Source: Escherichia phage vB_EcoS_HdSG1
Strand: one strand, 5' to 3'
Sequence record: MK373795.1
DNA: 63,595 nucleotides
Shown: positions 4,234 to 5,011 of the stretch, one piece after another
How positions within the stretch are numbered: position 1 is the stretch's first letter
How the letters are laid out: the number at the start of each line of letters is the position of its first letter
The notes under the pieces: model-generated
Database searches by the model: none
Told to the model about the DNA's origin: nothing
Seen by the model: the letters and a program-made list of their open reading frames with translations, nothing else
Program-made: the position numbers and the translations under genes

Positions 4234-4571
4234 TGGCCAAAGATATCGTTATTCCGAAAATGTATTGCCAACTTCGTGATACTTTATTACAAAGCGGTTG
4301 GATTATTAGTCACAGCGATGTAAATGACACTTATATTGTTCTTATACCACCTGAAGGAACCATATCCTGCATTTTGCACTATATGCCCGAAGCGAAAACG
4401 GTTTATCCGAACGGGTCGTTCTTGCTTCGTCTGCGCTCCGATACATGGAAGATCCAGACGGATACCTGTGCAATTGACGAGAATACCAGTAAAGAATTTA
4501 TTCGCAAGCTAACTCAGCTGAATAAAATCTACCAGCATGTTAAATTTGATTTGTTTAAGGAAGTCTTCTAA
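4233..4571 (+). CDS. hypothetical protein
   Basis: 112-aa ORF; start overlaps upstream stop. Confidence 0.6.
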   Translation: MAKDIVIPKMYCQLRDTLLQSGWIISHSDVNDTYIVLIPPEGTISCILHYMPEAKTVYPNGSFLLRLRSDTWKIQTDTCAIDENTSKEFIRKLTQLNKIYQHVKFDLFKEVF

Positions 4572-5011
4572 TGCTTACTGTTAATGACCGCATCACCCAT
4601 AAAACTCAACCGACAATCATGTCCTGCATGGCAGCCTGTCTGGCTATGCTTCTTGACAGGGATGTTGAAGAGGTTGACAACGAATTTAGCCCAGACTACG
4701 TTCGTGGGTATATTGATGTTGCTACTTATCTATATCGACAAGGCATCTTTGCACAGCCACATATCACTGCCGGTATGCACCAAATATATCCAGGGCGCTT
4801 GTATCTTGCGACTGTACCTTCTTTGCAGTTACCTGGGCTTTTCCATCAGATCATTATTGACGCTCGTTTTGACGGTGTGACCGTATACGATCCATGTAAA
4901 GGTCTGGAAGGGAAACAATATTATTCCTATGACCACATTGCAGAAGAAAACGAGCTGGCGTATCCTCTGCGGTCTTTCCTGATTGATTACGAAATTATAT
5001 TACCGGAGTGA
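4571..5011 (+). CDS. C39-like papain-fold cysteine peptidase (putative)
   Basis: SCMAACLAMLL resembles the C39 catalytic-Cys motif (CGxACLAM-IL); downstream FHQIIID...TVYDPCKG resembles the C39 His and Asp-Pro region. Confidence 0.6.
   Translation: MLTVNDRITHKTQPTIMSCMAACLAMLLDRDVEEVDNEFSPDYVRGYIDVATYLYRQGIFAQPHITAGMHQIYPGRLYLATVPSLQLPGLFHQIIIDARFDGVTVYDPCKGLEGKQYYSYDHIAEENELAYPLRSFLIDYEIILPE

Follow-up and report, generated by a model that had tools for sequence, protein, structure and literature searches.

Peptidases of the C39 family are textbook parts of the exporters of bacteriocins and quorum peptides. Some antibacterial toxins, too, are C39-type peptidases in free form (PMC12136450; bioRxiv 10.64898/2026.05.07.723447). 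The toxins Cpe1 (T6SS; PDB 9l5u) and StbD-CT (CDI; PDB 8ssm/8ssk) cut GyrB and ParE at a Gly-Gly site in the ATP lid, and this intracellular action of free C39-type domains was shown only in 2025-2026. Close structural relatives of C39 include the non-proteolytic BtrH acyltransferase and phytochelatin synthase, and the 2023 survey of papain-like peptidases that describes them does not list a phage family of the kind reported here (PMC10318531). According to a 2026 paper, an archaeal C39-like protein has glycosidase activity (PMC13642728).

We analyzed a gene for a 146-aa protein in a 63,595-nt stretch of DNA from Escherichia phage vB_EcoS_HdSG1 (MK373795.1), the whole of which is referred to as the window. 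The nearest known system is the C39 domain (PF03412) of PCAT/AMS ABC exporters such as PCAT1, LahT, ComA and CvaB. In contrast to these domains, the phage-encoded peptidase is neither part of an ABC transporter protein nor a genomic neighbour of one, its phage encodes no substrate with a double-glycine leader, its sequence lies below Pfam detection, and the Gly following the nucleophile is replaced by Met, Ile or Val in its family. Peptidase_C39_2 (PF13529)/3erv-type single-domain proteins and Peptidase_C70 (AvrRpt2, PF12385) gave weaker matches than C39 proper. PeiW, PeiP and PeiR (C71) of methanogen viruses are larger, carry wall-binding repeats and act on archaeal pseudomurein, whereas the phage peptidase has neither an export signal nor a wall-binding domain and its host is E. 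coli.

The gene and its operon

The open reading frame was present on the plus strand, with an ATG start, exactly as given in the preliminary description. The two motifs quoted there were also exact in the sequence, at residues 18-28 (SCMAACLAMLL) and at residues 91-97 and 104-111 (FHQIIID and TVYDPCKG), and their catalytic residues were invariant in 111 relatives. The start codon overlaps with the stop codon of the upstream gene as TAATG, which suggests translational coupling. No transmembrane, signal-like or SAR segment and no wall-binding domain was found in the peptidase (maximum KD 1.14). As the protein is in addition acidic, with a pI of 4.8, it should be soluble and cytoplasmic. The positions of the features are summarized in Table 1.

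The source phage belongs to the 9g-like coliphages (Nonagvirus, Queuovirinae). In phage 9g itself, the ortholog of the gene is gp42, which is labelled 'hypothetical protein'. The region 3400-6400 of the window showed 94-96% nucleotide identity to JenK1, JenP2, 9g and HdK1. The preliminary description had counted the peptidase gene among the early genes; its strand and its operon lead on into the lysis cassette and the terminase gene, and the genes for replication and 7-deazaguanine modification occupy the opposite strand.

Several further observations were made on this genome. Bases 1..3363 are repeated at 60233..63595 with 0 mismatches, so that the genome unit is 60,232 bp; this 3,363-base repetition stems from a long direct terminal repeat or from the wrap-around of a circularly presented assembly. 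In the related phage HdK1, a 64,059-bp linear record, the peptidase gene is located at a similar distance from the left end. Directly downstream of the peptidase gene, gp43 (5015..5368, +) encodes a 117-aa protein of PHROG 17085 (function unknown), the C-terminal segment of which (…FNIGLSTAYKIYHIYG…) looks helix-turn-helix-like by eye. Two genes downstream, an HslV/proteasome-beta-like Ntn hydrolase is encoded at 5365..5859 (+; PHROG 1040, E 1.3e-34). It starts with Met-Thr, as expected for an N-terminal Thr nucleophile, and its ortholog in the 9g record is split into two ORFs. This gene accompanies the C39-like gene in Nonagvirus and Seuratvirus only, not in other lineages. A 92-aa ORF at 53928..54203 (-), unrelated to the C39-like gene, is 100% identical to bas20_0058 of FritzHoffmann, which is called 'putative cysteine protease' in that record.

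Table 1. Positions of the peptidase gene, its predicted functional residues and its operon in the window, and placement of family members at other loci.
Feature	Source	Position	Strand	Remarks
C39-like cysteine peptidase CDS, stand-alone, 146 aa	Window	4571..5011	+	Ortholog of phage 9g gp42; PHROG 4049
Shine-Dalgarno-like AAGGAAG, 7 nt upstream of the peptidase ATG	Window	4557..4563	+	Direct sequence reading
Gln13 codon, predicted to form the oxyanion hole; precedes the nucleophile by six residues, as in papain and C39	Window	4607..4609	+	Invariant in 111 sequences; pairs with Q21 of LahT150
Cys19 codon, predicted catalytic nucleophile, N-terminus of helix 19-28	Window	4625..4627	+	Invariant; helix start in the AlphaFold2 model; pairs with C27 of LahT150
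Cys23 codon, C-x3-C with the nucleophile	Window	4637..4639	+	91% conserved among relatives
V-P-S-L-(N/Q) family signature just before the catalytic His	Window	4814..4828	+	V 91%, P 93%, S 96%, L 89%, N 87% in the 111-sequence alignment
His92 codon, predicted general base, start of strand 91-97	Window	4844..4846	+	Invariant; pairs with H101 of LahT150
Asp107-Pro108 codons, predicted third triad residue and C39-typical D-P motif	Window	4889..4894	+	Invariant; pair with D117-P118 of LahT150
Operon: gp40, gp41, C39-like peptidase, gp43, HslV-like peptidase, two small ORFs, Rz-like spanin	Window	3868..6753	+	Stops and starts overlapping or abutting
Terminator-like hairpin downstream of the operon, followed by endolysin, holin and terminase	Window	6843..6869		
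Gene between topoisomerase II large and medium subunit genes	Kuttervirus Maynard (L004)	1571..5257		Stops and starts overlapping
Gene between topoisomerase II large and medium subunit genes	Agtrevirus Gloob (L029), Shigella phage	1074..4768		Stops and starts overlapping
Gene between thymidylate synthase and dihydrofolate reductase genes	Methylovulum miyakonense HT12 scaffold (L023)	1614..3432		Stops and starts overlapping
Gene adjoining dTMP kinase	Phage JM-2012			
Gene adjoining YfbR-like deoxynucleotidase	MAG contig L025			
Gene between RdgC-FtsK-gamma and HNH / MT-A70 genes	MAG contig L024			
Gene near helicase	phiVC8			
Gene near clamp loader and SbcC	Jumbo phage pEa_SNUABM_5			
Gene near RNA ligase and CCA-adding enzyme	L020			
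Gene upstream of nuclease, endolysin, holin and terminase	L018			
Gene amid small hypothetical genes	Vequintavirinae, Samunavirus			

Relationship to the C39 superfamily

Scans of the window protein itself against Pfam and NCBIfam gave no family at E<=10, none of the PADLOC models matched it, and sequence and profile searches of the PDB returned non-significant matches only. The sole direct family match was PHROG 4049 (function unknown), with an E-value of 3.7e-56 and residues 7-145 aligned to positions 2-141 of the 145 in the profile; the homolog in FENT2 is annotated as phrog=4049. A word-indexed homolog search collected 21 clusters, and their alignment was invariant at Q13, C19, C23, H92, D97 and D107. 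When the alignment was extended to 111 diverse relatives, the representatives of which had about 30-57% identity to the window protein, the invariant columns were only Q13, C19, H92, D107 and P108. A clan-CA peptidase would be expected to have just this set of Gln, Cys, His and Asp, and the Q-x5-C spacing is papain-like as well.

Pfam Peptidase_C39 (PF03412) was matched weakly by 38 of the 111 remote relatives, with a best E-value of 2.4e-6, and by four of 19 close relatives. The other Pfam matches among the 111 were to C39_2 (7), C58 (7) and, for one relative, Phytochelatin (E 0.007). PF12385 was not within the top families for any of these sequences, and the peptidase did not show the combination of a PF12385 match and a best structural similarity to AvrRpt2 that would mark a member of Peptidase C70.

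Comparison by hhalign with the single sequences of LahT or Cpe1 gave weak results, and reference alignments were then built instead. The alignment of the 111 phage-family sequences matched that of 25 bona fide PF03412 domains of LahT type, built around LahT150, with a probability of 91.5% and an E-value of 8.6e-7 over 99 columns, and the conserved Gln, Cys, His and Asp-Pro fell on their LahT150 counterparts (Table 1). The motifs are thus beyond chance, because the only residues invariant in 111 sequences are also in register with LahT-type C39. The window protein alone did not reach the PF03412 threshold; homology across the whole C39 domain was found for the family at the profile level. The family also has marks of its own, namely V-P-S-L-N ahead of the His and the absence of Gly after the nucleophile. 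The former was found in the phage family only; it is absent from canonical C39, and LahT has FPCIIHW at this place.

The profile of the phage family matched that of the toxin clade, to which Cpe1, StbD-CT, EvpQ and TsaP belong, with a probability of 84%, but over only 20 columns that covered the nucleophile helix alone, whereas the toxins matched LahT-type C39 with 95% over 127 columns. As far as these alignments tell, the phage family is therefore a separate and more divergent branch and is not specifically allied with the toxin clade.

Predicted structure

The AlphaFold2 model was confident (pLDDT 92.6, pTM 0.89) and had a compact papain-like alpha+beta fold, the nearest solved structures of which are C39 domains. 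In the model, helix 19-28 has Cys19 at its N-terminus, strand 91-97 opens with His92, and Asp107 comes directly after strand 104-106, a papain-like arrangement. The best four Foldseek matches in the PDB were all PCAT1, with a probability of 0.94-1.0. C39 domains outranked or equalled PeiR, deubiquitinase-type matches were weaker than those to C39, and CHAP/NlpC-type matches were poor, with a TM of about 0.2. A fold search of BFVD returned uncharacterised phage proteins with a TM of up to 0.88 and one Bacillus phage 'Peptidase C39 domain-containing protein'.

The preliminary description had proposed a free-standing C39-like cysteine peptidase, to be checked by HMM search and structure prediction. 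The HMM search gave no significant direct profile match, but the family-level profile, the predicted fold and the Gln/Cys/His/Asp set agreed in favor of this proposal and of a papain-like (clan CA) enzyme. Judged from the profiles and the model, the protein belongs to the C39 superfamily as a divergent member whose predicted catalytic set is intact and whose sequence lies below Pfam detection.

Distribution and genomic context

An exhaustive profile search detected 776 clusters (50% identity) at E<=1e-3 and 444 at E<=1e-10, and most of the 150 listed representatives were stand-alone proteins of 135-160 aa. By tblastn, 196 GenBank phage records were found to carry the peptidase. They belonged to Nonagvirus, Seuratvirus, Ackermannviridae (Kuttervirus and Agtrevirus), Vequintavirinae and the Vibrio podophages phiVC8 and VP5, and further to Pseudomonas, Erwinia (including a 267-kb jumbo phage), Shewanella and other phages. 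A free-standing phage copy, which had been regarded as unusual in the preliminary description, is hence a common one, already gathered in PHROG 4049 and labelled as a peptidase in two records. One is ESCO3 ('papain-like cysteine protease AvrRpt2', OM386652) and the other is Shewanella phage S0112 ('peptidase C39 family protein', PMC6893657). The AvrRpt2 label of the former probably arose because bona fide C39 domains themselves cross-match PF12385. When 185,579 genomes of bacterial species were scanned with a degenerate pattern, four matches emerged, each of them a true family member by HMM. In the literature searched, neither an experimental study of a phage member nor transcription timing in Nonagvirus was found.

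Some metagenomic homologs were longer. P0159 and P0073 had N-terminal extensions of about 115-120 aa without a Pfam match, P0047 had a C-terminal YunG-like phage domain and P0102 a C-terminal zinc-ribbon-like segment; these fused forms may be gene-calling mergers.

All-against-all comparison of the neighbours at ten loci revealed nothing in common but the peptidase itself, and the HslV-like partner was seen only within Queuovirinae. Across sipho-, myo- and podoviruses, no conserved gene was found that might serve as partner, immunity factor or substrate, and no ABC transporter was present in the source phage or at any examined locus. Delivery domains (PAAR, VgrG, Rhs, CdiA) and a conserved immunity-like neighbour were likewise absent from the examined loci, which distinguishes the phage peptidase from Cpe1 and StbD-CT, with their delivery domains (PAAR, Rhs, CdiA) and adjacent immunity genes.

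Outside Queuovirinae, the gene was located mostly within DNA or nucleotide-metabolism modules (Table 1). Maynard, a Salmonella phage, and Gloob represent two subfamilies of Ackermannviridae; adjacency to topoisomerase genes was checked at the other loci and was not found outside this family. On the Methylovulum scaffold, the thymidylate synthase, peptidase and dihydrofolate reductase genes are followed by one for a PrtN-type pyocin/prophage activator and, beyond it, by bacterial two-component genes of the ordinary kind. This copy is probably carried by a prophage, and its surroundings look like the edge of a prophage or of a phage-derived island.

Divergence among Nonagvirus genomes

Among nine Nonagvirus genomes, the peptidase gene was the most divergent gene of its operon. 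Its mean amino acid identity was 83%, compared with 92-98% for most neighbours and 89% for one small ORF, and both dN (0.105 vs 0.009-0.055) and dS (0.50 vs 0.05-0.34) were higher than those of the neighbours. The dN/dS ratio of about 0.21 corresponds to purifying selection and thus indicates a real coding gene. The elevated dS suggests that allele exchange or old alleles contributed to the divergence, so that positive selection need not be its cause. On these sequence comparisons, the peptidase is constrained, yet its allelic diversity reflects old age, exchange through recombination or fast evolution. Variable sites accounted for 35 of the 62 positions in residues 1-62, comprising the N-terminal segment and the helical lobe, and for 10 of the 70 in the beta-lobe with His and Asp; the catalytic residues did not change among the alleles. 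The identity of gp43 across Nonagvirus genomes was 96-100% (mean 98%), against 71-97% for the peptidase.

Search for a substrate encoded by the phage

The phage proteome was searched for a double-glycine leader motif, and none was found in 2,620 start/ORF combinations, where 1.4 were expected by chance. The Gly-rich protein, which the preliminary description had named as a candidate substrate, starts with MSDMTLIPGG, corresponding to the proximal half of the leader consensus only. This half-motif was not significant (one found vs 0.48 expected; P about 0.03 given the Gly-rich composition). Moreover, homologs of the Gly-rich protein were found in T1-like, T5-like and Yersinia phages without the peptidase, and the Vibrio, Pseudomonas and Erwinia phages with the peptidase had no Gly-rich protein. 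We therefore rejected it as a family-wide substrate, although it may still fit in Nonagvirus alone.

The Gly-rich protein (32173..32886, +) consists of 237 aa, with an N-terminal Gly-rich region of about 58 residues containing 12 GG dipeptides and with Cys clusters (CCC, GCCAC) towards the C-terminus. It belongs to PHROG 9288 (function unknown), is encoded directly downstream of the tail-fibre genes and has homologs in Queuovirinae as well.

Discussion

We regard proteolytic activity, in a divergent C39 lineage particular to phages, as very probable. The combined profiles, predicted structure and genomic distribution are best explained by a soluble, cytoplasmic and catalytically competent clan-CA cysteine peptidase that would form a phage-specific branch of C39 and cut a host or host-defence protein; the probability of this explanation as a whole is estimated at roughly 0.55. 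Cys19 at the N-terminus of the core helix would serve as the nucleophile, His92 and Asp107 on adjacent beta-strands would complete the triad, and Gln13 would form the oxyanion hole. With no exporter tether and no double-glycine leader encoded, the peptidase would act in trans in the infected cell. Its target would be a folded protein or an exposed loop, probably cut at a small-residue (Gly-Gly-type) site by analogy with its relatives. We infer that action in trans in the infected cytoplasm on a host or defence target, in takeover or counter-defence, is most likely and that a phage structural protein is a less likely substrate, because no partner gene travels with the peptidase, its usual setting is one of early/middle DNA and nucleotide metabolism, and its helical lobe diversifies fast. 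The peptidase behaves as an accessory gene.

Of the alternatives, processing of a phage protein ranks highest; it is followed by non-proteolytic thiol chemistry, a wall peptidase associated with lysis, a ubiquitin-like deconjugase and, last, a dead domain that only binds. Proteolytic processing is the usual role of C39 enzymes, and the peptidase might accordingly mature a phage-encoded protein, for example by N-terminal trimming of the Gly-rich protein or of a virion protein. The start of the Gly-rich protein and the location of the gene upstream of lysis and packaging genes in Queuovirinae and at locus L018 are in line with such a role, but it is rather unlikely in view of the non-significant half-motif, the lack of a full leader in the proteome, the differing phage sets of the two proteins and the absence of a neighbour conserved across sipho-, myo- and podoviruses. 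In addition, prohead proteases are normally encoded beside portal or capsid genes, and the peptidase gene lies away from these. It is also unlikely that the fold serves a non-proteolytic thiol enzyme, such as an acyltransferase, a deamidase, a transglutaminase-like enzyme or a deconjugase of a non-protein substrate. This would agree with the BtrH_N acyltransferase and phytochelatin synthase being among the nearest families of C39 (PMC10318531), with the single Phytochelatin match and with the recurrent nucleotide-metabolism operons (ThyA/DHFR, dTMP kinase and YfbR-like nucleotidase). However, the Q-x5-C ... H ... D-P layout is retained, the best sequence and structure matches are true peptidases, and no small-molecule-binding domain is present.

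A peptidoglycan endopeptidase or isopeptidase aiding lysis appears quite improbable, as a signal peptide, SAR or TM segment and wall-binding domain are all absent, the structural comparisons rank C39 above or level with PeiR and far from CHAP/NlpC-type enzymes, and the phage already encodes an endolysin. Moreover, the gene occurs elsewhere mostly among DNA-metabolism genes, far from those for lysis. Much the same doubt applies to a Gly-Gly isopeptidase stripping ubiquitin-like or CD-NTase conjugates of Bil-type or type II CBASS systems, which would be a special case of counter-defence; the deubiquitinase-type matches fell behind C39, the PADLOC models were unmatched, and no genetic link to Bil or type II CBASS systems was seen. 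The C39-like domains of HlyB-type exporters have no catalytic Cys, and a catalytically dead domain might similarly act by binding. In contrast to these CLD pseudo-peptidases, the phage family keeps Cys19, and the invariance of Gln, Cys, His and Asp across 111 sequences is hard to explain without catalysis, making a dead domain highly improbable.

A more specific version of the host-directed cleavage preferred here is that the phage family is a viral counterpart of Cpe1 and StbD-CT, disabling host GyrB/ParE by a Gly-Gly cut in the ATP lid or, more generally, disabling a key host or defence protein; we consider this a long shot. The placement of the gene in Ackermannviridae is suggestive because free C39-type toxins cut GyrB and ParE. 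At the site of E. coli GyrB cut by Cpe1 and StbD-CT (LHAGGKF), the topoisomerase II ATPase subunit of Maynard has LYAGSNF, with no Gly-Gly. If the host topoisomerases were the target, the Ackermannviridae enzyme with LYAGSNF would escape cleavage and take over from the host enzyme. T4-type topoisomerase II may also lack the Gly-Gly motif without any involvement of the peptidase. Phages without a topoisomerase of their own would require another host target or late timing; in this Nonagvirus no topoisomerase is annotated, and the phage presumably depends on the gyrase of its host. Together with the limitation of the adjacency to one viral family and the profile comparisons, in which the phage family was not specifically allied with the toxins, these points form a substantial case against generalising.

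Many unrelated tailed-phage groups, including Queuovirinae, Ackermannviridae, Vequintavirinae, Vibrio podophages and jumbo phages, thus carry a minimal, transporter-less C39-like peptidase with an intact catalytic set, nearly always annotated as 'hypothetical'. At the minimum, PHROG 4049 and the orthologs of 9g gp42 can be re-annotated as 'C39-like cysteine peptidase'. The position between topoisomerase II subunit genes in Ackermannviridae provides a concrete and testable hypothesis. If the substrate is a host or defence protein, the family would represent a widespread protease of host takeover or counter-defence, and few enzymes of that class have been characterised.
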